Shown: positions 10,258 to 21,820, counted from the stretch's first letter. The stretch is 28,858 nt of DNA from Chlamydiota bacterium (GCA_021772365.1 JAJFMC010000212.1:1-28858); one strand, 5' to 3'. The notes: generated by a model not told the origin, from the sequence alone. Numbers and translations are program-made.

Positions 10258-11249
10258 AACAGAGGTTTCTATGCATATTTCTCTTTGCCCAATTTTCGTT
10301 ATTTGCCGATGGAGGATCCATTGTCAATCCTCTCACGACAATTTGTTGGGAGTGTGTATTCCCCATGACAGTTTCCGGCGCTAACATTACACCTGGGCAC
10401 AAGGATTTCCAAAGTCATAGTGATATCTTCTGTTATTGCCATGGAGTACCTCCAAAGGCCGGTGTCCCATTGACTTTTTGGGAGCCAACCAAATTAATTG
10501 ACGTCACGAAAGAGGCGTATAAACTCGTCGGATTGGGAGGTGTATCAATAGGAAAAGCGACGATAAAAAACAGGGGGGTTCTCAGTAAAAGTGGTTCGGG
10601 ATCTCAAACAAGCTTTGCCCATATTCACATCTATGATTATCCCGTATTTGCCATACTCGGACTTTTGACAGATTTTGCCTGTATTGAGGACAGCGAATGC
10701 GATCTTTGTTATTTCTCGGAGTTGGACCCTAGTTGGTATGATGATAGCCTCGCAAACATTCTTAACGCCGATGGTACCCTCTTTGCTGACCCTCTTGCTC
10801 AAATCGCATGTGTGGCAGACTGTACGAGTTCTTCCCTATCCAAACCATTGGATAAGCTATTCTGGTGTGCTGGATGTCACGGCTCCCTTTATCCATTTTC
10901 AGGGACAGTAGGAGCACATGTTGGTGATATTCAGGCGAGCCTTCTTTTGATGCAAAGGGGAATTGCTAAACTGCACAGGTCGGGATTCATTAAGGGGTAT
11001 AAAGAGGGAAACTATTGTGAGCAAAGCTATATGCCCGTCTGGAAAAAGACCCTATACAAATCGCAGATTGTCTATCCAGTTCCACAGACTAAGGGGGAGT
11101 GCCCCTCATTGGGAGGTACTGAAGTTATTTGGGGATCGGGAAAGTCATATCCCTACAAAGGAGAAGAATTTGTTTATGTTCTTTGGACAAAGAGACAGTG
11201 CTGCCTAGATGCTTCCAAGGTTGCGGCGTCGGAGGGGAGGCTATGGTAA
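10254..11249 (+). CDS. traU: TraU
   Basis: NPLTTICWECVFP, FWEP, YFSELDPSW, FWCAGC.GSLYP, KTLYK.Q; Cys-rich. Confidence 0.92.
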   Translation: MKQRFLCIFLFAQFSLFADGGSIVNPLTTICWECVFPMTVSGANITPGHKDFQSHSDIFCYCHGVPPKAGVPLTFWEPTKLIDVTKEAYKLVGLGGVSIGKATIKNRGVLSKSGSGSQTSFAHIHIYDYPVFAILGLLTDFACIEDSECDLCYFSELDPSWYDDSLANILNADGTLFADPLAQIACVADCTSSSLSKPLDKLFWCAGCHGSLYPFSGTVGAHVGDIQASLLLMQRGIAKLHRSGFIKGYKEGNYCEQSYMPVWKKTLYKSQIVYPVPQTKGECPSLGGTEVIWGSGKSYPYKGEEFVYVLWTKRQCCLDASKVAASEGRLW

Positions 11250-12886
11250 GGATTCTCTTTATATTAATTTTCTCATCTTTCACCACTTTTGCAAATGGAG
11301 AATCACTTTCCAAAGGGGAAAAGAAGCGAATACAGGTGGAGGCTAAAAACCTCGGTAAAAACTCGATAAACGATGTCTTTAAAAGCTTAGAAGGTTTTTG
11401 TTTATCGGATGACCTCTTACCCGAGAAGGACAAGGGGAAAGAGTTTGATGGTAAAAAGGCTAAAGAGGATGTTTTAACCGGCAAGGTGAAGTCTAATCCT
11501 GTTGTCGAATTTCTCGAGGAAAATTCTATTGTAAATAGCTACCTGTCTGAAAACGAAATGCTCTTTTCTGATGAGCTTAACGAGGTAGGTTCTGAAGAGG
11601 GAGAGTATCTAGAGGTTTGCAAAGAGTCGGCTGACCCCGTCACCTTCCATTTTACAAGGACTCTAAATTACGATTTGGAAAAAGAGCTTGAAAAAGTGAT
11701 GGTATTAAAGTGCTTAGGACATAATGAAAGTAGAAAGGTAACTAGGGGGAAGGGAGAATCAAAAGCCAAGAAGAAAAGTAAAACGTTTGAGTCAGACCAA
11801 AATATTAAATGGTTTAAGGTGAAAAATTATAAAAAGGGATCTGATCATCACGACGTCGTTGAATCAAACTGGAGACATGTTGATGACTGTTTGTCATGTT
11901 CTCACAATGAAAAAGTAGTCGAATTTAGGGAAACCGGTTCATGGAGAATCATCAATGAAAAATGGGAGTACAGTAATTCATCAATCAAGAAGATCGCTTA
12001 TGACTCTAAATCTAGGTTGGTTTCTAAAAAATGCTTAGATAATGTTGCGAGAGATATTAATGGAACAAAACTTTCTCAGTGCTGGGTAGAGAGATTTGAG
12101 TTCATCTATACCCCAGAAAAAGTTTCTGGATGTGATTTTCTAAAAAGTCAATTCTGCAAGCTTAAATTAAGCGAATGCTTAAAAAATGGCCCATTTGGGT
12201 GTGATCTGTGGAAGAGAACCTTCAGTTGTTACAAAGCACTTAACCGTAAAAAACAATACGAATTAGATAGTGAAGATCTTGGGTTGGCAGATTTTATAGT
12301 GGAAGGGGTGTACGAACCAAACGAAAGTTTATCAGACGTTACAACGAAGCTCCAAATATTCAATGAAATGGATAAGGATCTACAGAACACAGATATGATA
12401 GATACCCAAAATTTTGAGTTTTTCTCAGGTAAGAAACACCGTTGCTACGTAAATTTTTTAGGAGATCTAGTTTATGATTGCTGCAATAAAATGGGGGGGC
12501 TAGCTGTCGATGCAGTAATGTCAAAATGTGATGAAGAAGAGTTAGCCTTATTGGATCTAAATAATCGAGGACAGTGCCACTATGTTGGGAAAAAAAATCA
12601 TTCTGAGCTTGGTGTGAAAGTGTCTAAGAAGAAGATTTTCTGCTGTTTTTCTTCGAAATTAGCAAGAATATTTGTTGAAGAAGCGAAAGACCAACTGGGT
12701 TTAACTTGGGGAACAGCAGAAAAACCTGATTGTGGGGGATTATCTCAATCTCAAATTCAAGAGGTAGATTTTGATAAAATCAATCTATCTTCGGCATTTG
12801 AAGTCCCGGCAGCTGACTTCAATGAACGTATCAATAGACTCCAACAAAAGATATCAGATGGGTTGAAACAAGGAGAGAAGAATTGA
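11243..12886 (+). CDS. traN: TraN mating-pair stabilisation protein
   Basis: Start reassigned to ATG 11243 (signal peptide MVRILFILIF). C-terminal FFSG..C...DCC, CHYVG, FCCFSSKLARI, WG.AEKPDCGGL, DFDKINLS. Confidence 0.9.
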   Translation: MVRILFILIFSSFTTFANGESLSKGEKKRIQVEAKNLGKNSINDVFKSLEGFCLSDDLLPEKDKGKEFDGKKAKEDVLTGKVKSNPVVEFLEENSIVNSYLSENEMLFSDELNEVGSEEGEYLEVCKESADPVTFHFTRTLNYDLEKELEKVMVLKCLGHNESRKVTRGKGESKAKKKSKTFESDQNIKWFKVKNYKKGSDHHDVVESNWRHVDDCLSCSHNEKVVEFRETGSWRIINEKWEYSNSSIKKIAYDSKSRLVSKKCLDNVARDINGTKLSQCWVERFEFIYTPEKVSGCDFLKSQFCKLKLSECLKNGPFGCDLWKRTFSCYKALNRKKQYELDSEDLGLADFIVEGVYEPNESLSDVTTKLQIFNEMDKDLQNTDMIDTQNFEFFSGKKHRCYVNFLGDLVYDCCNKMGGLAVDAVMSKCDEEELALLDLNNRGQCHYVGKKNHSELGVKVSKKKIFCCFSSKLARIFVEEAKDQLGLTWGTAEKPDCGGLSQSQIQEVDFDKINLSSAFEVPAADFNERINRLQQKISDGLKQGEKN

Positions 12887-12912
12887 CTATTCACTATTAA
12901 CCACATAGTCAA
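12883..12912. promoter_or_regulatory. Perfect 8-bp inverted repeat TTGACTAT-N14-ATAGTCAA
   Basis: Arms at 12883-12890 and 12905-12912; the left arm overlaps the traN stop. Confidence 0.55.
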
Positions 12913-12936
12913 AGAATAGGAGGGTTAAGAAAAAAG

Positions 12937-12991
12937 TTGACTTGTAATTATGTGTATGGATAATTCCTTTATATGGAAGAATATATACACA
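12937..12991 (+). promoter_or_regulatory. abiE promoter with overlapping inverted-repeat operator
   Basis: TTGACT (12937-42), 16 bp, GATAAT (12959-64). 17-bp arms at 12951-67 and 12975-91 match at 13/17 positions and cover the -10. Confidence 0.6.
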
Positions 12992-13002
12992 GGATTGTTT
13001 AA

Positions 13003-13764
13003 ATGAATAAGGTGAAATTACTTAGAGAATTGGTTAACAGTGGTTTAAAGATATTTTCTTTAAAGGATGCAAGAGAAATGGCCATAAAAATTGGTTTAAA
13101 CGAAAAATCGGTTACAAAAATCCTTTATCATCTAAAAAAAGATGGATGGATAGAACCCATAAAAAATGGGGTATATTCTATCACCTCCGAGTCGGGTTTC
13201 GGACCACATCCTCATGATTTTGAGGTTGCCATGGCTATAGTTAATCCGTGCGCGATTAGCCACTGGACCGCTCTTCACTATCATCATCTCACCCAGCAAA
13301 CACCTAATATTATTTATGCAATCACCCCGATAGGGAGTACAATTCCCAATAAAAAGAAATCGATTTTTCACTTTGTTCGATTAAAAAAAGATCGCTATTT
13401 TGGGATTCAAAATGTCTGGATGGGAGAGGCGAAGGTTCAAATAACAGATCCGGAGCGAACGCTATTGGACGGCTTATTACATCCGCAATATTGCGGAGAT
13501 TTCAACGAGGTACTTCATGCGTTCAAGGTATGTGGAAGTGGTCTTGATCTAGATAAAATTGTTACATACTCTAAAAAATTAGGGGTCGCAACCGTGAAAA
13601 GGTTGGGATTTATATTAGAATCCCTCGGGGTAGATAATAAGTGGTTAAAAACCTTGGAAGAAGTGCCTGTTAACGGAATAAGAAAACTAGACCCAAGTGG
13701 TTCAACAAAGGGGACTAAAAGTAAAAGATGGAAAATTATTGAAAATATTGGAGGCGAATCATGA
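13003..13764 (+). CDS. abiEi: Type IV TA antitoxin, AbiEi family (wHTH + C-terminal domain)
   Basis: LKKDGWIEPIKNGVY wHTH, AISHWTALHYHHLTQQ, ITDPERTLLD. Confidence 0.88.
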   Translation: MNKVKLLRELVNSGLKIFSLKDAREMAIKIGLNEKSVTKILYHLKKDGWIEPIKNGVYSITSESGFGPHPHDFEVAMAIVNPCAISHWTALHYHHLTQQTPNIIYAITPIGSTIPNKKKSIFHFVRLKKDRYFGIQNVWMGEAKVQITDPERTLLDGLLHPQYCGDFNEVLHAFKVCGSGLDLDKIVTYSKKLGVATVKRLGFILESLGVDNKWLKTLEEVPVNGIRKLDPSGSTKGTKSKRWKIIENIGGES

Positions 13765-14639
13765 CTTTAAGTCCTCTTAGAAAAAGGTTAGATTCTGCAT
13801 CAAAAAAATCAGGCATCCGTCTTGACGTCATTCAGCAAGATTACTTACTGTCTTGGATTTTAGCGGGAATTTCACAGACTCCTTCTTTAAGTAGCTACTG
13901 TATTTTTAAAGGAGGAACAGCTCTAAAAAAGTGCTACTTCGGGGAATATCGGTTTTCTGAGGATATAGATTTTACTGCATTGAATGAGCTTCCATGTGGT
14001 GATGAATTAGAGGGTGAAATCAAAAAAGCTGTGAATATCGCCTCGGAAATGATCAATGAGTTCGCACCCGTTAAACTAAGATTTAGTAGATACAGTGAAA
14101 AATACCCTCATCCAGATGGCCAAGAAGCCTTTTCTATTTATGCTCAATACCAGTGGCAAAATCACCCACTAACGAAAGTCATGATTGAGATTACTAGAAA
14201 CGAGGATATGGTTTTAGAAAGCACAAAAAGAAGGATGATCCATTTATATGGTGAAGATATTGAAATTGATCTTCTTTCTTATTCATTAGAGGAGATTGTT
14301 CTTGAGAAGCACAGAGCGATCCTTCAGCACACCAAAAAATTGTACGAAAGAGATTGGGGGCGCTCCAGAGCCAGAGATTATTATGATCTTTGGAGGATAT
14401 TTAAGACGTACAAAGAATCACTTCAATTAGATGATTTTAAAAAAAATCTTATCCAAAAATGCAGCAAAAAAGAAGTGTTCTTCAAGGACTCGAATGATTT
14501 TTTTCAACCGATCACTTTAAATAATGTGAGGAAAACATGGAATCAGTGGCTAGGTCCTCTGGTTAAGGATCTTCCTAATGTAAATATCGTAATCGAAGAT
14601 CTTCAAGATATTGTGAGAGACCTTTTGGAGGAACAATGA
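13761..14639 (+). CDS. abiEii: Type IV TA toxin, AbiEii-family nucleotidyltransferase
   Basis: QDYLLSWIL, FKGGTALKKCYF..YRFSEDIDF, EK.RA, RARDYYDL. Confidence 0.92.
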   Translation: MTLSPLRKRLDSASKKSGIRLDVIQQDYLLSWILAGISQTPSLSSYCIFKGGTALKKCYFGEYRFSEDIDFTALNELPCGDELEGEIKKAVNIASEMINEFAPVKLRFSRYSEKYPHPDGQEAFSIYAQYQWQNHPLTKVMIEITRNEDMVLESTKRRMIHLYGEDIEIDLLSYSLEEIVLEKHRAILQHTKKLYERDWGRSRARDYYDLWRIFKTYKESLQLDDFKKNLIQKCSKKEVFFKDSNDFFQPITLNNVRKTWNQWLGPLVKDLPNVNIVIEDLQDIVRDLLEEQ

Positions 14640-15418
14640 ACCGAAAGTTCCACTTAAACAAGCTCCTGTTAGTGTGTTTTATTCTTCCTCATTTGCTACA
14701 AGCAGGTTGGCATGATCGAAGGTGCGAAGGATGGGCTTATTATGAAGAGAAATCTGTTCCAAAAGAAGACAATGAAAAGCCCATTCAAGTTACAAAAAAA
14801 CCATCGGAAGAACTTCAGGAGCGTAAAAATGAGATGGAAGATACTCTTGCAAAAGCCATTTTGGAGCCCACAGAAGAAAATATACAGAAGTACATTGAAT
14901 TACAAAATATGTGGCTTATTAGAGCTGGTGACGTGTCTAAAGTATGGGCTAAAGTGGTGTTAAAGAATCCCTCTTTGGATAATTCGATTTCCGGAACCCC
15001 AGTATCGAGCTATGGGTCAAAATTTTATCATAAACAAAAATCCCTATTGCAAAAGGATATTGTGAAATCGCTCGCTGAAAGTCACGGATTAATCTGCTTT
15101 TATGAGGGAAGGGACGAAGCTTCAAAAGAGTTTGCTAAGATGATTTCCCTGTTTTCCAAGAGATACGACTGGATAGTGCAGCCGATCTCTGTAGATGGAG
15201 TCATACTAGAAGAACTTCCAGGGAGTATTCTGGACAAGGGTTTAAAAGAACAATTTGGGATCACACATTTCCCTGCTGTATATGTGATTGAGCCAAACGA
15301 AACTGAAGCGATACCTGTAGGATTTGGTCTTGTATCTGTAGATATGATTGAAACAAATATAACCCTTCAATTTCGTGAGAATTTTGAAAAAGGGAAAATT
15401 CATAAACAATTGAAGTAG
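14636..15418 (+). CDS. traF: TraF
   Basis: Signal peptide, GW(A)YYE motif, LEPTEENI..Y, thioredoxin-like C-terminus without CxxC (FY...ISVDG..FPA). Confidence 0.88.
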   Translation: MNRKFHLNKLLLVCFILPHLLQAGWHDRRCEGWAYYEEKSVPKEDNEKPIQVTKKPSEELQERKNEMEDTLAKAILEPTEENIQKYIELQNMWLIRAGDVSKVWAKVVLKNPSLDNSISGTPVSSYGSKFYHKQKSLLQKDIVKSLAESHGLICFYEGRDEASKEFAKMISLFSKRYDWIVQPISVDGVILEELPGSILDKGLKEQFGITHFPAVYVIEPNETEAIPVGFGLVSVDMIETNITLQFRENFEKGKIHKQLK

Positions 15419-15427
15419 GAGAAAAAC

Positions 15428-16054
15428 ATGAGAAAATTGAGTATATTTGGGATTTTAATAGTGATGTTGGGTATAACAACTCTTTCATCAAGAGTTCATT
15501 ATGATTTTTTTGGGAAAAATACAGCTAAAAATTTAGCGTTTTCTAACCAAGTGATCGAGGAGATTTTGACTCCTGATGAATGGAATGGGAAAATACGTAC
15601 TGAAGAGTTGATTCAGGGTTCTGGAGACTTTATTGCTATTAATGACATTATCTCTGGAACTAAAGACTCATTCAACGAACAAATCGCATATTATTTAAAT
15701 GAAGAATTTCATGAAATAGAACACGGAAAATTATTGAATATTTGTCGGGGACTCGCCTGTAAGAACATGAAAAATGAATTTCAGAATAGGGGATGGGAAA
15801 CGGGTAAATTAGACTATGAGATTGTTTCTGAAAAACCTCAGGATATTATTCATGTATCGGAGGGGAGAACAAAGAATCCTGAAGTGGACTTTGGGGTACT
15901 TTATATCAGAAGAGAAGTTCAAATAAAGACATGGAGACTTGTTTTAAGTTATGAAAAAATAATATCCAAGGACAACCCCGGAAACAAAACTGAATGGATT
16001 GAGAGGATCAAAAATAGCTCAATGATCAACGATTGGATTTCTAGAAATCGATAA
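15428..16054 (+). CDS. Hypothetical exported or membrane-anchored protein
   Basis: 208 aa, co-oriented, with short gaps on both sides. N-terminal hydrophobic segment; no motif recognised. Confidence 0.65.
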   Translation: MRKLSIFGILIVMLGITTLSSRVHYDFFGKNTAKNLAFSNQVIEEILTPDEWNGKIRTEELIQGSGDFIAINDIISGTKDSFNEQIAYYLNEEFHEIEHGKLLNICRGLACKNMKNEFQNRGWETGKLDYEIVSEKPQDIIHVSEGRTKNPEVDFGVLYIRREVQIKTWRLVLSYEKIISKDNPGNKTEWIERIKNSSMINDWISRNR

Positions 16055-16067
16055 GAGGAGAACACCT

Positions 16068-17438
16068 GTGTGTTTATATCTATTCATATTTTTAATAATT
16101 TCCCTACCTGTTTTTTCTTCGCCTCAACAAGTTAGAAAAGACTTAGATAAATTTTTAAGTGAGTATAATTCAGGATCATCTCTTGAATCTCCAAAAATTT
16201 ATAAAGGTCAAATGGCGGGTTATGGTACAGCGGGAAGTTTAACAACACGCAACCGCGTATTTAACCGAAAGCCTTTAACAGTCACACCCCCTAGTTATTC
16301 TGCTGGTTGTGCGGGAATTGATGCTCATCTAGGAAGCTTTTCGTATATCTCAAAAGAGGAGTTAATAGATGCAATGAAAAACACAGCGTCTAATGCTGCA
16401 ACCTACGCCTTTTTGCTAACAGTAAAATCTGTGAGCCCTCAGGCAGAAGATACCATGTGCTGGCTTCAAGAAATGTCTAATCAAATTAATTCGATGAATA
16501 TTAATTCGTGTGAGTTGGCAGAACAGGCTGTAGGGGCTTCTTGGCCCAATGCTGTTGGGGCAAGGCAACATATTTGTCGTTCAATGAGTAGACAAAATGG
16601 ACTTTTGAGTGACATGGCCATCGCAAGGCATAAGTGTGCTGAAGATAATACCCGTTTAGGAAAAGATCCTGAATTGGGCGATTCTTTTGCGGGTTCTTAC
16701 AATTTAGCATGGGATATAATCAGTAAAGATCCATTTTTGACAACACAACCACAGTTTGCCGAACTTTTTATGTCGATTACTGGAACAATTGTTATAGGGG
16801 ATGATGGTGTTCCGAAGCATTACCCATCGATGGTTAATGATTCTTCATTCATGAAAAGTCTATTCGAGGGAGGGGAGTTAGAATGCTATTTATGCTCAGC
16901 ACTTGGGACAAAAGATCAGTCATTGCTGGATAATCTTTTTAAGAATTCAAAAGGATGTCTGGATATTGTAATGGGAAAAAAGAAGTTTTCTGGAACAAAC
17001 TCCTTTCACGCTGAAACGAAAAAGAAGCTTGAAAATATTCAAATTTCATTATCGGAAAACACTGAGCTACATGAGTCTGATAAAGAAATTTTAATGAAAA
17101 CAAGGCTTCCCGTTGGAAGAATTATTTGTGCTCTTACTGCATATCATAGAGGAAGATGCCCTGTAGAGATTGCGACCATTTCCGAGGTCGTAACAATGGA
17201 TATTATTTGCCAATATCTAAAAGACGTTGTTAGGAGTGCACGTGCAACAGCTTTACAACTCAAAGATATTCAGTTTGATGGGAAACCGATTGAGAACTTT
17301 ATTGATAATTTACGTGATGTAGAAAGGGTAATCTTAGAATACGAGACCAACTCCAGAAACGTGTTCGAGGAGCAGTTTCAGTTTATGAAGATGCTTGAAA
17401 TGATTGAAAACAACTTACAAAAAAATATTGCTCTGTAG
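16068..17438 (+). CDS. traH: TraH
   Basis: RBS AGAGGAG + GTG. GYGTAGSL..R, PPSYSAGCAGID...GSFSYI, INSCELA. Confidence 0.92.
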   Translation: MCLYLFIFLIISLPVFSSPQQVRKDLDKFLSEYNSGSSLESPKIYKGQMAGYGTAGSLTTRNRVFNRKPLTVTPPSYSAGCAGIDAHLGSFSYISKEELIDAMKNTASNAATYAFLLTVKSVSPQAEDTMCWLQEMSNQINSMNINSCELAEQAVGASWPNAVGARQHICRSMSRQNGLLSDMAIARHKCAEDNTRLGKDPELGDSFAGSYNLAWDIISKDPFLTTQPQFAELFMSITGTIVIGDDGVPKHYPSMVNDSSFMKSLFEGGELECYLCSALGTKDQSLLDNLFKNSKGCLDIVMGKKKFSGTNSFHAETKKKLENIQISLSENTELHESDKEILMKTRLPVGRIICALTAYHRGRCPVEIATISEVVTMDIICQYLKDVVRSARATALQLKDIQFDGKPIENFIDNLRDVERVILEYETNSRNVFEEQFQFMKMLEMIENNLQKNIAL

Positions 17439-17447
17439 GAATTAAAG

Positions 17448-20147
17448 ATGACCAATGAAATGACAATCATCACATATGGAGGCGGAGAGATCTTATTCAA
17501 GTTATTTACTGGAATAAAGATGGTCTTCGATAGTGGATTCATTAAATGGATGTCATATTGCATGGCATCGATTACGGCTGTATATGTGATTTATTTGTCA
17601 TACTTTAAGCCACATCCTGATCATCTAACGAAGAATTTTCTTTTTCCCGTATTAGCTCTTGTTATTTTATGTTTCAATGTAAAAACCACGGTTTATATTG
17701 AAGATTGTCTCCCTCTTTCCCAAGGGGGAATCAATTGGACTTCAGGTAATCGCAGTCAAAATACGGAACATGTAGCTCAACCTTCCAGAAGTGTTGATGG
17801 GGTTCCCTTTATCATTGGTTTCCTCTCGAAAACAATAAGTTCTTTGGGTTATCAAATGACTCTTGCTGTCGAAAGCGTTTTTCACGAGGTTGATGATGAA
17901 AAGTACTCGAAAACTGGGATGATTTTTGGCGCAGAAACCGCCCTAGATATGAATGAAATTGTGATCAATGATGGAAATTTGGACAGTAATCTACGCACTT
18001 TTTGTAGAAACTGTATGCTTTACGACTTGGCGTTAAATCTCTATACCCTAAAAGACTTGAAAAACGAAACAAATCTACTAGATTTTCTAAAGGAAAGAAC
18101 AGCAAAAAGCCGTTATATGAATTACATTGATAATTCTTCAGAACAAACTAAATTGATTTCATGCAAAGAGGCTATCGAGAATATCTCAAAAAAACTCGAA
18201 AAGGGTGGCCCTGAAGTAGCACATCAACAAAACAAGCAAATCTTCAGAAATTTACCTATAGCCTATCAAGCATTGACTAAAGTGTCTGGAGATAGCGAAG
18301 AGATCATCAAACAGCTTCTTGTGATGAGTGTTGTAACCGAAGAGATGTCTTCTCAAGCCTTCGCCTCCAAAAGAGCAGCTCTTCAACAAAAAACTACATG
18401 GAAAACTATGGGCGGTATCGCTGATGGATTGGTTATTACAACTCGTTGTGTAATAGAGTCCTTGATTTATGGAGCTGTTCTCTTCGTGATCCCTTTGTTG
18501 TTCCTTCCATCAGGGTTTACTTATTTGAAAACATGGGTTTGGCTTTTGGTGTGGATTCAACTATGGCCTCCATTTTATGCGATTTTAGATTATATAAGTT
18601 TGATAGCTGCTAGGGGACAATCCGATGGACTGTTTGATTCCAGTAGGGCTAATACTTGCTGTCTTTCGATATATAATACGATTGGCCTTTCCAATGTTTA
18701 TGGAAATATCTCGGCTTACGCAAAATCCATGAAAATTCTAATTCCCCCACTATCTTATGCCATATTACAGGGGGGAGTTGGATCCTTTGTCCATCTCACA
18801 AGCTCAATGATGGGAGCTTCTCAGCAGGCTGTTTCTCAGGCATCATCTGACGAGATGTCGGGGAATTACAGCTTTGCTAACGCAAGCATGGACACCAAAA
18901 ATTTTTCCAATGCTACTTACGGACAACAAAATTATGCCTCCTCAACTAAATCAGGTTTTGTTAGCAGAGAGTCAATAGGGGAAAAAGTTGATTTTTCCTC
19001 TGATGCAAGCGTCATGCAAGAGAAACGTACAGATTTGTCTCATGGTTTTTCCGTTGATGAATCATTTAGAAGTAGCTTAGCAGAAAACCTTACAACTTCA
19101 CAAACAGCGCATGAATCTTCAGCAAGAAGTCTAAATGAGAGTATCTCAAATACAGGAAGAGATGCTAAGGATTTCACTTCCCATGTAGCTCATGACTTAA
19201 GTTATAGCACCTCTGATTCCACAAGTGAATCTTTTGAAGCATCAAAGGCCGCACAATTCATGGAAAATAAAGCGGATACATTTGCAAAAGACCATCGATT
19301 AAGTTCAGATGCCTCCTGGGAAATTTTTGGATCAGTTGGAGCGGGTATCCCCGGTACAGATGTTAGAATGGGAATTAGCGCAAAACACGGGATTACTTCA
19401 AGCGACACATGGAACGACGCCTTATCCGTCAGTGAATCTACTGAATATCGAGAGGCATTCAATAAAGTAGAAAACTTTGCAAAGAATTTCTCACAGAATT
19501 CTACTGATGGGGAGGGGGAGAGAATGGCGACATCATTTACTCAATCAGTTGATCAGATGAGATCGGACTCTATGCAATATTCAACAACACTTGATAATAT
19601 GAACCAATCTTCGCATGCATCCAGCTTCTATAACGATTGTTCTCTATCTGAAAGACAGGATTTAACGCAAAAATTTCTGGATTTTGCAATTGATGAGAAA
19701 GGATATAGCATTAATCAATTTCCCAATAAAATTATGGAAGATTCAGTGGCCTCCAAGGAATTAGTTCAAGACTTTACTTCTGCTCTAATTCCTAAGATAG
19801 AGGCCCCTCAGGATTATATCGATCCGGAAAATTTTTACAGGGGATCAGTTGAAAGTATCGAAAATCAATCGACTATAACGACTTCTGTAAGTTCAGAGCG
19901 GTTTGGAAGCATGAATATGGGGGGATCTGTGAAAAATGATGTTGCGGAGAAGCTGTTGGTAAAACAGAACCATAACAATAAGTTTGAAGATACAAGAGAT
20001 CTGATTAGTGAGGCAAAAGATTTGGTTCATACAAAAACGGTTGATAAACAACCAGTTAGTTTAAGGGAATTAGACCTTGAGATCAATTGGAATCAGTCAT
20101 TTGATGATGATGTTGCACCTAACTATAGTTACTGGTGGGGAAAATAA
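17448..20147 (+). CDS. traG: TraG (F-type, VirB6-like N-terminus)
   Basis: IITYGGGE, VDGVPF, WIQLWPP.YAIL, multiple TMs, Ser/Thr-rich C-terminal half. Confidence 0.92.
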   Translation: MTNEMTIITYGGGEILFKLFTGIKMVFDSGFIKWMSYCMASITAVYVIYLSYFKPHPDHLTKNFLFPVLALVILCFNVKTTVYIEDCLPLSQGGINWTSGNRSQNTEHVAQPSRSVDGVPFIIGFLSKTISSLGYQMTLAVESVFHEVDDEKYSKTGMIFGAETALDMNEIVINDGNLDSNLRTFCRNCMLYDLALNLYTLKDLKNETNLLDFLKERTAKSRYMNYIDNSSEQTKLISCKEAIENISKKLEKGGPEVAHQQNKQIFRNLPIAYQALTKVSGDSEEIIKQLLVMSVVTEEMSSQAFASKRAALQQKTTWKTMGGIADGLVITTRCVIESLIYGAVLFVIPLLFLPSGFTYLKTWVWLLVWIQLWPPFYAILDYISLIAARGQSDGLFDSSRANTCCLSIYNTIGLSNVYGNISAYAKSMKILIPPLSYAILQGGVGSFVHLTSSMMGASQQAVSQASSDEMSGNYSFANASMDTKNFSNATYGQQNYASSTKSGFVSRESIGEKVDFSSDASVMQEKRTDLSHGFSVDESFRSSLAENLTTSQTAHESSARSLNESISNTGRDAKDFTSHVAHDLSYSTSDSTSESFEASKAAQFMENKADTFAKDHRLSSDASWEIFGSVGAGIPGTDVRMGISAKHGITSSDTWNDALSVSESTEYREAFNKVENFAKNFSQNSTDGEGERMATSFTQSVDQMRSDSMQYSTTLDNMNQSSHASSFYNDCSLSERQDLTQKFLDFAIDEKGYSINQFPNKIMEDSVASKELVQDFTSALIPKIEAPQDYIDPENFYRGSVESIENQSTITTSVSSERFGSMNMGGSVKNDVAEKLLVKQNHNNKFEDTRDLISEAKDLVHTKTVDKQPVSLRELDLEINWNQSFDDDVAPNYSYWWGK

Positions 20148-21820
20148 TGACTGATGTGATGAAATCCATAGCGGAAGGAGGGCAAACTTGGGCGCACAGG
20201 ATGCGCATGATCCGTCAGGTTCTTAAGATTATAGTATTAACCTCTCTATTTATCCTTTTGGCAACGGTTGTTTCTTCTATGCTGTGGAATAACAGCTCTT
20301 TGCTCATAGCACTTTATTACAACGTAAAAGCATCGCTCGTCTCTGTGTTTGATAATCAGATATTAATAGATCCTCATCTTTGGAAAAAGGTGACTGGGAT
20401 TTCACATGGAAATAGAGAACTTACCATGTCTGTCAGTAGAGTATTAAAGATAACAAATCCTCAAGTGGATAAACTTTATGCCGAATTTTTGAAAAGCATG
20501 TTCTTGGGATTGAAGATCTTTTCTGTTAGCACGCTAATGATGCTCTCATATTTTTTACTCCGTGGACTTAGCTCGAAAAGGAAAAAGCATCTTTCAGGAT
20601 CAAAAATTGCAAATTCCATGATTCTCATATTAAGGCTTTACCTTTTCAGAAAAGCATCAAATATAAAAATTGGATCGCTTCCATACGTGATAAATACAGA
20701 AACGAAACACACCCTTATAACTGGTGGAACGGGAAGCGGAAAAACAAATTGCCTTCATCACATTCTGTCATCAATTAGAGAATCTAAAGCAAAAACAATT
20801 GTGATTGACACAACCGGAACATTTGTCTCACGTTATTATCGAGAAGGAAAAGACATCATTCTTAATCCCTTTGACGAAAGGGGAGTTGCATGGAGTCCAT
20901 GGGCAGACTGTGAAGATAGATTTGATTATGAAGAAATGGCCGAGAGTTTTATTCCTATATCTAATAGAGAAAGTGAGGGATACTGGAGAACAGCAGCCAA
21001 GTCTCTATTTTCTTCCCTATTGCAAAAACTAGATGAGACTAAAAGAATATCCGATCTTGTGCGATGGGTTCTTTTTTCTTCCCTTCAAGATTTAAGCGCC
21101 TTTGTAGAGGGGACAAAAGCCGCTTCTCACATAGATATCAACTCCGAAAAAACCGCAGGTTCCGTCCGTTCTGTAGCCTCTTCCTTTCTAGAATGCCTAG
21201 AATATCTAAAAGATACAGAGAATCCCTTTTCCATCAAACAGTGGATCAAAAAAGAGGATGACTCTTGGCTCTTTATTAGCTGTAAACCATCGCAACGTGC
21301 TTCCATAGCCCCTCTTATCACCAGCTGGATCTCCATTGCCGTTAGGGGAGTCCTCTGTCTAGAGCCATCAAGAACACGCCGTATTTGGTTTGTCCTAGAC
21401 GAGCTTCCAACCCTAAACAAGGTCAAAGGTTTGGAAACACTTCTGACAGAGGGCCGTAAATACGGGGCATGCTCACTTTTAGCCCTACAAAGCCCCTCTC
21501 AACTAGATTCAATCTATGGCAGAGATATTTCTCATATAATCGCGGGTAATTGTTCTACAAAGATCGTTTTTTCAGAGTACGATCCTGAAATCGCAGAGCG
21601 TATCTCAAAAGTTTTTGGTAAAAGCGAAATAGAGGAGTATCAAGAAGGCATCTCCTACGGAGCTCATGAGATGAGAGACGGAGTTAACATTTCCCGTCAA
21701 AAGAAAAACCAAGCAACTGTTTCAGCTACTGACATCCAAAATTTACGTCCAAATCAGGCGTATGTAAGGTTATCAGGGAAGATTCCTATTACTAAGCTGA
21801 AATTGAAGATTGTTCGGTAA
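20147..21820 (+). CDS. traD: TraD type IV coupling protein
   Basis: ATG 20147 overlaps the traG TAA. Walker A GGTGSGKT, LNPFDER..WSPW, Walker B WFVLDELPTL, GRKYG, EGISYGA. Confidence 0.93.
   Translation: MTDVMKSIAEGGQTWAHRMRMIRQVLKIIVLTSLFILLATVVSSMLWNNSSLLIALYYNVKASLVSVFDNQILIDPHLWKKVTGISHGNRELTMSVSRVLKITNPQVDKLYAEFLKSMFLGLKIFSVSTLMMLSYFLLRGLSSKRKKHLSGSKIANSMILILRLYLFRKASNIKIGSLPYVINTETKHTLITGGTGSGKTNCLHHILSSIRESKAKTIVIDTTGTFVSRYYREGKDIILNPFDERGVAWSPWADCEDRFDYEEMAESFIPISNRESEGYWRTAAKSLFSSLLQKLDETKRISDLVRWVLFSSLQDLSAFVEGTKAASHIDINSEKTAGSVRSVASSFLECLEYLKDTENPFSIKQWIKKEDDSWLFISCKPSQRASIAPLITSWISIAVRGVLCLEPSRTRRIWFVLDELPTLNKVKGLETLLTEGRKYGACSLLALQSPSQLDSIYGRDISHIIAGNCSTKIVFSEYDPEIAERISKVFGKSEIEEYQEGISYGAHEMRDGVNISRQKKNQATVSATDIQNLRPNQAYVRLSGKIPITKLKLKIVR

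Follow-up and report, generated by a model that had tools for sequence, protein, structure and literature searches.

A likely accessory AbiE cassette at a traN–traF cargo hotspot in chlamydia-type F-like conjugative elements

A contig of 28,858 nucleotides (nt) from a Chlamydiota bacterium (GCA_021772365.1 JAJFMC010000212.1:1-28858; this whole stretch is referred to below as the window) carries an F-type transfer operon in which a predicted AbiE toxin–antitoxin pair, abiEi and abiEii, separates traN from traF. An initial annotation of the sequence had placed the pair at this position, and the placement was confirmed by open reading frames (ORFs), Pfam and PADLOC. The comparative data indicate that abiEi–abiEii is probably an accessory toxin–antitoxin or abortive-infection cassette residing in a traN–traF cargo hotspot, within a lineage of chlamydia-type F-like conjugative elements. 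At exactly this junction, related elements hold four unrelated cassette types or nothing, and close backbones differ in their cargo. AbiE in the window is thus a further case of the known phenomenon of hotspot cargo; specific to it are the presence of a single hotspot inside an operon and the repeated translational fusion of cargo to traF. The features concerned are listed here, with positions counted along the window and protein lengths in amino acids (aa).

11129..12886, + strand: traN, an ORF matching PF06986 (2e-45); the final gene 5' of the hotspot.
12937..12964, + strand: sigma-70-type promoter-like site of the cassette, with −35 TTGACT, a 16-nt spacer and −10 GATAAT; 10/12 matches.
12946..12996, no strand assigned: inverted repeat, candidate AbiEi operator, with 22-nt arms at 12946-12967 and 12975-12996 and a 7-nt spacer; it covers the −10 element and the expected transcript start.
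13003..13764, + strand: abiEi, antitoxin and putative autorepressor, 253 aa; PADLOC AbiEi 2.4e-63.
13761..14639, + strand: abiEii, predicted DUF1814 nucleotidyltransferase toxin, 292 aa; PF08843 7e-32, PADLOC 2.9e-66.
14627..14639, + strand: coupling junction, with GGAGGA at 14627-14632 in the last abiEii codons (Leu-Glu-Glu), then ATGA at 14636-14639.
14636..15418, + strand: traF, PF13728 3.5e-54, the initial gene 3' of the hotspot; a signal peptide is followed by a GWHDRRCEGW motif, as in relatives.
15428..21820, + strand: the distal, co-oriented genes orf208, traH, traG and traD, assigned by ORFs and Pfam; any transcript exiting the cassette would enter them.

The traN–traF junction in related elements

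TraF was searched for in 400 other genomes of the phylum, 34 of which matched; 27 of the fetched loci were informative for the junction. In 26 of these 27 species genomes traN abuts traF, the TraN match ending no more than about 210 nt from the TraF match, and there is therefore no room for a cassette. The lone exception, G039, encodes a 486-aa ATPase_2/DUF234 protein between the two genes, which PADLOC assigns to PDC-S27 (3.4e-180). This genome sample is distant from the window, the best TraF identity being 44%. The closest TraF proteins in a collection of 5.8 billion proteins are 55-64% identical, and the contexts of seven were examined. Between traN and traF they hold the following.

L140: a 70-aa ORF and a 480-aa PDC-S27-type ATPase (PADLOC 1.7e-79).
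L142: a 487-aa PDC-S27 ATPase (PADLOC 5.3e-174).
L141, L143/L144 and L145: a pair of AbiEi_2 and NTP_transf_8 genes.
L146/L147: a different AbiE pair, whose toxin is 22% identical to that of the window.
L149: no cargo, with traN running directly into traF through an ATGA overlap.

PADLOC gave no match for the AbiEi_2/NTP_transf_8 pair. Together with the window, the seven relatives form one TraF clade of eight (support of 98 in the Shimodaira–Hasegawa-like approximate likelihood ratio test, SH-aLRT), in which a single site shows five states: cargo lies exactly at traN–traF in seven elements, and the eighth is empty. All trees described here are quick searches with SH-aLRT support only, and cargo functions are assigned by annotation only. 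At one and the same position between conserved transfer genes, related backbones thus hold cassettes that are unrelated to each other, as at the hotspots of SXT/R391 elements, and the cargo is enriched in predicted defence or addiction functions, namely AbiE of two kinds, AbiEi_2/NTP_transf_8 and PDC-S27. Outside the window's clade, cargo at this junction was seen only in two more distant elements carrying AbiE (L067 and L069, described below) and in G039. In this survey of traN–traF intervals, which the initial annotation had proposed, the cassette site is occupied in relatives by exchangeable, unrelated cargo and is empty in nearly all species genomes.

Exchange of cargo is apparent in two pairs of sister backbones, L140/L141 and L142/L143, whose DNA is 84% and 83% identical, respectively, and whose cargo is unrelated within each pair. 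In both pairs homology ends no more than about 25 nt from the traN stop. Beyond the unrelated DNA that follows, L142/L143 align again at most about 35 nt from the annotated traF start, and L140/L141 from 44-65 nt into traF onward. These breaks define the replaced block as the segment from the traN stop to the traF start region. Since backbones at 83-84% identity carry unrelated cargo, replacement must be more recent than the backbone divergence of about 17%. Homologous recombination in the flanking traN and traF genes would account for such exchange.

The AbiE cassette itself is not a newcomer to this kind of site. The three closest AbiEii proteins in the search of 5.8 billion proteins are those of the window, L067 (63% identical) and L069 (60%), and all three are encoded directly upstream of traF. 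These traF-linked proteins form one clade among the 54 best homologues (SH-aLRT 98), and the cassette is therefore an old resident of such sites rather than a fresh insertion, as the initial annotation had also held. The backbone of L067 is nevertheless distant (TraF 40-42% and TraH 27% identical), and the AbiE cassette has either passed from one backbone to another or undergone repeated replacement. No tra genes lie within 6 kb of the 35 AbiEii loci in species genomes, where full-length toxin matches reach no more than 53% identity. The second cassette family behaves similarly: traF-linked NTP_transf_8 proteins cluster (SH-aLRT 92) apart from 12 chlamydial copies that have no Tra-protein match in flanks of about 1.5 kb. 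Of 401 chlamydial genomes, 103 have NTP_transf_8 homologues of the L143 toxin, many of them short fragments or interrupted by stop codons; this toxin–antitoxin family thus appears to be in widespread decay.

More generally, these observations suggest that obligate intracellular bacteria, in which few defence or addiction systems have been described, exchange such cassettes on conjugative elements much as Vibrio integrative and conjugative elements (ICEs) do. The traN–traF junction offers a concrete site for mining further cassettes.

The AbiE pair, its promoter and its junction with traF

Both AbiE genes are intact. AbiEii scores 111.7 bits against PF08843 (cut-off 22.5), and its C-terminus is full, with no truncation relative to homologues. 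It aligns to PDB entries 9hlo_B (AbiGII) and 6y56_A, which we take to be MenT4, at only 22-35 bits. Compared with these two proteins it keeps the motifs FKGGTALKKCYFGEYRFSEDIDF (FKGG...S.DIDF; GG..S.DIDF), LEK and SRARDYYD (RDYYD). The corresponding patterns GG..S..D.D, E-K and R-D-x-Y-D are presumably the catalytic motifs of the family, all of which the toxin retains. AbiEi falls slightly below the Pfam cut-offs (AbiEi_1, 22.0 bits versus 22.2; AbiEi_4, 18.9 versus 25), and a search of PDB sequences with AbiEi gave no match; the PADLOC AbiEi model covers residues 2-252, its full length. In each of the 35 genome loci that the toxin search recovered, the gene immediately upstream of the toxin gene encodes an AbiEi homologue, and AbiEi partners that are 30-63% identical adjoin AbiEii in 38 loci (these 35 plus 3 others). 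The two genes overlap by ATGA at 13761-13764, with GGAGG 5' of the overlap. The pair thus has the attributes of AbiE: a DUF1814 toxin above threshold, nucleotidyltransferase motifs and an overlapping AbiEi-type gene immediately 5'.

The cassette also appears to have its own promoter, as initially annotated. The promoter-like site in the 116-nt traN–abiEi spacer is the sole match above 9/12 in a 5.2-kb scan (11000-16200), although the total number of promoter-like matches in that interval is not above chance. The operator-like repeat that overlaps it is complementary at 16 of 22 positions, a score reached by 16 of 1000 dinucleotide shuffles. The cassette proteins of L067 are 63% identical to those of the window, and a repeat at the position aligned with this one is stronger there (17/22, a score that none of 300 shuffles reached) and differs at inner positions of both arms; the −10 sequence GATAATT is invariant across the window, L067 and L069. 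The layout of a promoter with a repeat over its −10 element is therefore conserved in the sister cassette L067. It fits the AbiEi operator arrangement reported elsewhere (PMC3985639, PMC7319586, PMC11062541), with AbiEi as the putative ligand. No second copy of the operator-like repeat is present elsewhere in the window. No terminator-like site was found in the traN–abiEi spacer, only weak stem-loops occurring within traN and abiEi, and none can follow abiEii because that gene overlaps traF. Read-through into traF, from traN and from the cassette promoter, is thus plausible on sequence grounds.

The junction of toxin and transfer gene is as the initial annotation described it. The abiEii stop overlaps the traF start four bases downstream of GGAGGA, and the start and overlap are considered real because a signal peptide starts at the methionine encoded at 14636 and stops short of the conserved GWHDRRCEGW motif. 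The same 4-nt overlap of cargo and traF is found in L141, L143, L145 and L146, and a toxin–traF overlap is probable in L067 too, provided that its traF begins at GTG 1814, a start that yields a proper signal peptide. Cargo abuts traF in L140, overlaps it by 20 nt as called in L142 and lies 10 nt away in G039. L069 departs from this pattern: about 90 nt, with a separate Shine–Dalgarno sequence, lie between its abiEii and traF. Where the initial annotation had taken the seamless overlap as a sign of domestication, this part of its argument is not supported. The empty site of L149 already has an ATGA overlap, unrelated cargo is joined to traF equally tightly, and sister backbones swap their cargo; a seamless junction is therefore a property of the site and not of AbiE domestication. 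The recurrent re-creation of the 4-nt traF overlap provides a clean natural example of selection keeping translational coupling after insertion into an operon.

Based on these data and on what is described for the families involved, a working model can be outlined. AbiEi would bind the repeat and repress its own promoter. AbiEii would be a growth-arresting nucleotidyltransferase restrained by AbiEi, as are Streptococcus AbiE and mycobacterial MenAT; it would act on tRNA ends or use GTP (PMC3985639, PMC7450476, PMC10435456), and its neutralization would proceed through AbiEi (PMC11375011; bioRxiv 10.64898/2026.01.19.700257). To judge from its context, the cassette may benefit the element by post-segregational stabilization, by competition against related elements with other alleles, and/or by phage defence. 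Because there is no terminator, and because the toxin stop overlaps the traF start behind a Shine–Dalgarno sequence, the cassette is probably read through into traF: transcripts from an upstream tra promoter and from the cassette promoter would both enter traF–orf208–traH–traG–traD, and traF translation would be coupled to that of abiEii, restoring the traN–traF coupling of the empty site, so that the distal genes stay expressed. We infer that this coupling arose from operon compaction and not as a dedicated regulatory circuit. AbiEi might also control traF–traD; the case for this is weakened by sister elements that hold one ATPase gene or have an empty site, and by the lack of a further operator copy in the window.

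Known systems and competing explanations

A close parallel is found in the SXT/R391 elements. As summarized in PMC6743048 (after Wozniak et al. 2009) and in PMC7251087, hotspots H3 and H4 of these elements lie at s073–traF and traN–s063, respectively, and AbiEi/AbiEii, under the names ynd/ync, occupies hotspot H2 in some of them. The similarity extends to variable cassettes (toxin–antitoxin, restriction, Abi and bacteriophage exclusion, BREX) at fixed intergenic sites between conserved F-type transfer genes, to hotspots at the borders of traN and traF, to an AbiE pair among the known cargoes, and to cargo that differs among related elements while backbones stay similar. The window, by contrast, comes from a different phylum and a different element family. 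Its lineage has traN and traF directly adjacent when the site is empty, giving one hotspot in an apparent single operon, and its final cargo gene is joined to traF, in most cases through a 4-nt overlap, whereas SXT/R391 cargo lies between separate operons. A general Pfam scan of the window's ORFs turned up no SXT/R391-type integrase or setR/setCD-type regulator, which along with integration in prfC mark that family, and analogy, not membership, is what is claimed.

A second comparison is with characterized AbiE systems (mechanism: PMC3985639, PMC7450476, PMC11375011). Like AbiE of Lactococcus and Streptococcus agalactiae (PMC3985639) and MenAT of M. tuberculosis (PMC7450476, PMC10435456, PMC11375011), the pair in the window is bicistronic, with the antitoxin first and overlapping genes, and combines a DUF1814 toxin with conserved motifs, a COG5340-type antitoxin and a promoter inverted repeat. 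Unlike them, it has one repeat pair instead of the two operator repeats described, is a predicted pair with low bit scores to solved homologues, and has its 3' end fused to a conjugation gene. AbiE also stabilizes ICESsuHN105, an ICESa2603-family element of Streptococcus suis, where the antitoxin autoregulates via promoter palindromes and acts on element functions by binding oriT (PMC11062541). Both cases place an AbiE pair on a conjugative element. ICESsuHN105, however, is a Gram-positive ICE with a different transfer system, and its AbiEi modulates excision and copy number through oriT, whereas the window lacks a second binding-site copy and the link proposed here is transcriptional and translational read-through into traF. 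F-like tra units have been described in chlamydiae since 2004 (PMC548262); Pam100G of Protochlamydia amoebophila and other chlamydial tra operons share the gene set and order traL, E, K, B, V, C, W, trbC, traU, N, F, H, G, D, and differ from the window in the cargo-free junction that prevails among them. No paper on AbiE together with chlamydiae was found in the literature searched.

Several points weigh against the accessory-cassette explanation. Of the ten cargo loci, seven encode an AbiEi-like antitoxin with a nucleotidyltransferase, and in two lineages of such pairs linkage to traF is exclusive. This predominance could reflect a site-specific function instead of a neutral choice of cargo; alternatively, it may stem from plain abundance, given the frequency of NTP_transf_8 homologues among chlamydial genomes. 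No recombinase or defined recombination site was found, and the mechanism of exchange is thus one we propose. Finally, the evidence for the hotspot cassette comes entirely from metagenome contigs, and the window is the whole of one contig (C127) in a metagenome bin that is 61% complete and comprises 432 contigs. Logan contigs from four DNA runs of one biofilm study, the source of the bin, match the window at 100% identity only as short pieces (150-625 nt; depth about 3-5). Overlapping pieces span traN, the spacer and abiEi, and the abiEii–traF junction is without a visible bridge among the matches listed.

These assembly data could be taken to mean that the arrangement is a metagenomic misassembly, or that the cassette is a decaying, functionless remnant. 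Both are highly improbable: the same architecture recurs on independent contigs from other samples (L067, L069, L146/L147, L141, L143/L144 and L145), the identical unitigs cover the cassette's 5' part, and both ORFs are full length with motifs kept. A more substantial alternative holds that the AbiEi-governed cassette promoter has become the main driver of traF–orf208–traH–traG–traD, so that mating competence tracks the state of the toxin–antitoxin pair and nucleotidyltransferase cassettes are retained for that promoter. It would draw on the region's best promoter-like site and the operator-like repeat in front of the cassette, the absence of a terminator between cassette and traF, the toxin–traF overlap in the window, L141, L143, L145, L146 and probably L067, and the long residence of two cassette lineages at the site; AbiEi is also known to regulate ICE functions elsewhere, as at the oriT of ICESsuHN105 (PMC11062541). 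Sister elements with an ATPase (L140, L142) or an empty site (L149) nevertheless manage without AbiE, and distal tra expression therefore needs no AbiEi-controlled promoter. Read-through from the main tra promoter is likely, with no terminator predicted after traN, the window has no second operator copy, and traF of L069 stands apart from abiEii with its own Shine–Dalgarno sequence. An independent traF promoter within abiEii, which in the initial annotation would have spoken against antitoxin control of traF, was represented only by a 9/12 match at chance level. On balance we consider this explanation unlikely. The same doubt attaches to its fuller form, in which two lineages of AbiEi-like antitoxin and nucleotidyltransferase are specialized residents of the junction, the autorepressed promoter drives traF–traD, the final codons of the toxin gene double as the ribosome-binding site of traF, outer mating-pair proteins are supplied according to the toxin–antitoxin state and loss of the cassette cripples transfer. 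If an internal promoter of this kind did operate, it would constitute a new route by which an addiction module becomes indispensable to its element.

The junction might instead be a dedicated anti-phage island, with AbiE and PDC-S27 kept to protect the host and the link to tra incidental. The cargo of L140, L142 and G039 matches PDC-S27, a phage-defence candidate in PADLOC. PDC-S27, however, is not known to be more than a candidate system, and the AbiEi_2/NTP_transf_8 pair is unmatched there. AbiE was defined as an abortive-infection system (PMC3985639), and BREX, restriction–modification and Abi genes populate SXT/R391 hotspots (PMC6743048); on an ICE, by contrast, AbiE acts in element stability (PMC11062541). 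A purely defensive role is in our view quite improbable, and it overlaps with the accessory-cassette explanation without excluding it.

The surrounding operon and palindromes next to traN

The window contains a co-oriented F-type transfer operon in the order traL, E, K, B, a thioredoxin gene, traC, trbC, traU, traN, traF, traH, traG and traD, with metal-efflux genes 3' of it. The signature genes of F-type mating-pair formation (MPF-F; traL, E, K, B, C, U, N, F, H, G and trbC) and the gene for the coupling protein TraD are all co-oriented, with Pfam matches for each. A blastn search of 11129-16054 against PLSDB plasmids gave no match. Between traF and traH lies orf208 (15428-16054; 208 aa), which has no Pfam or PADLOC match; homologues with 31-45% identity occupy the same position in L140-L145, and traF is joined directly to traH in most other chlamydial tra operons.

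The backbone is a mosaic. TraN and TraG of the window are 57% and 69% identical to those of L140/L141, compared with 49% and 59% to those of L142, and its TraH is nearer to L142/L143 (67%) than to L140/L141 (56-58%). Recombination breakpoints of the window's backbone at the hotspot were considered and dropped, as the mosaic identities place no break at the junction. One contig of run X2 (depth 9.1) matches about 21 nt in traN (12051-12072) and about 21 nt at the conserved traF start region (14698-14718), skipping the 2625 bases between the two sites and continuing past both into unrelated sequence. Given its 21-nt sides it may represent another organism, a related element, a repeat or a chance match, and it was set aside as evidence on the window's join.

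Palindromes adjoin traN in the window and in several relatives. That of the window is the following.

12883..12919, no strand assigned: imperfect palindrome (CTATTCACTAT ... ATAGTCAAAGAATAG) directly after the traN stop, with arms at 12883-12890 and 12905-12912.

A 22-bp palindrome with a TATAAT core, CTTTTCAYTATATARTGAAAAG, occurs once per locus at L140:3278-3299, L141:3437-3458, L143:3451-3472 and L067:62-83, and in degenerate form at L145:2435-2456. It is perfect in L143 and has one to two mismatches elsewhere, and its position is invariably 3' of the traN stop and 5' of the cargo, whichever cargo is present (ATPase, NTP_transf_8 pair or AbiE pair). It could be a leftover operator or promoter of a replaced NTP_transf_8 cassette, or a site-specific element of the hotspot. 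A longer palindrome of 36 bp (ATTTGGCCATATATAAA.AATT...GCCAAAT) adjoins traN at L143:3380-3415, L142:3471-3541 (where the centre reads N) and L069:49-85, loci that carry three different cargo types. As a genome-wide repeat it was not found in 401 chlamydial genomes, matches being at control level, and neither of the relatives' palindromes was found in the window at up to three mismatches; by eye, the window palindrome at 12883 may be a diverged form of the 22-bp palindrome. The independent contigs L067 and L069, from different samples, start with an identical 20 bases 5' of their AbiE cassettes (TCTTTGTCGAATATTTGGGT; L067:11-30 and L069:1-20), which is the pattern to expect if assembly stops at the border between a conserved flank and variable cargo.

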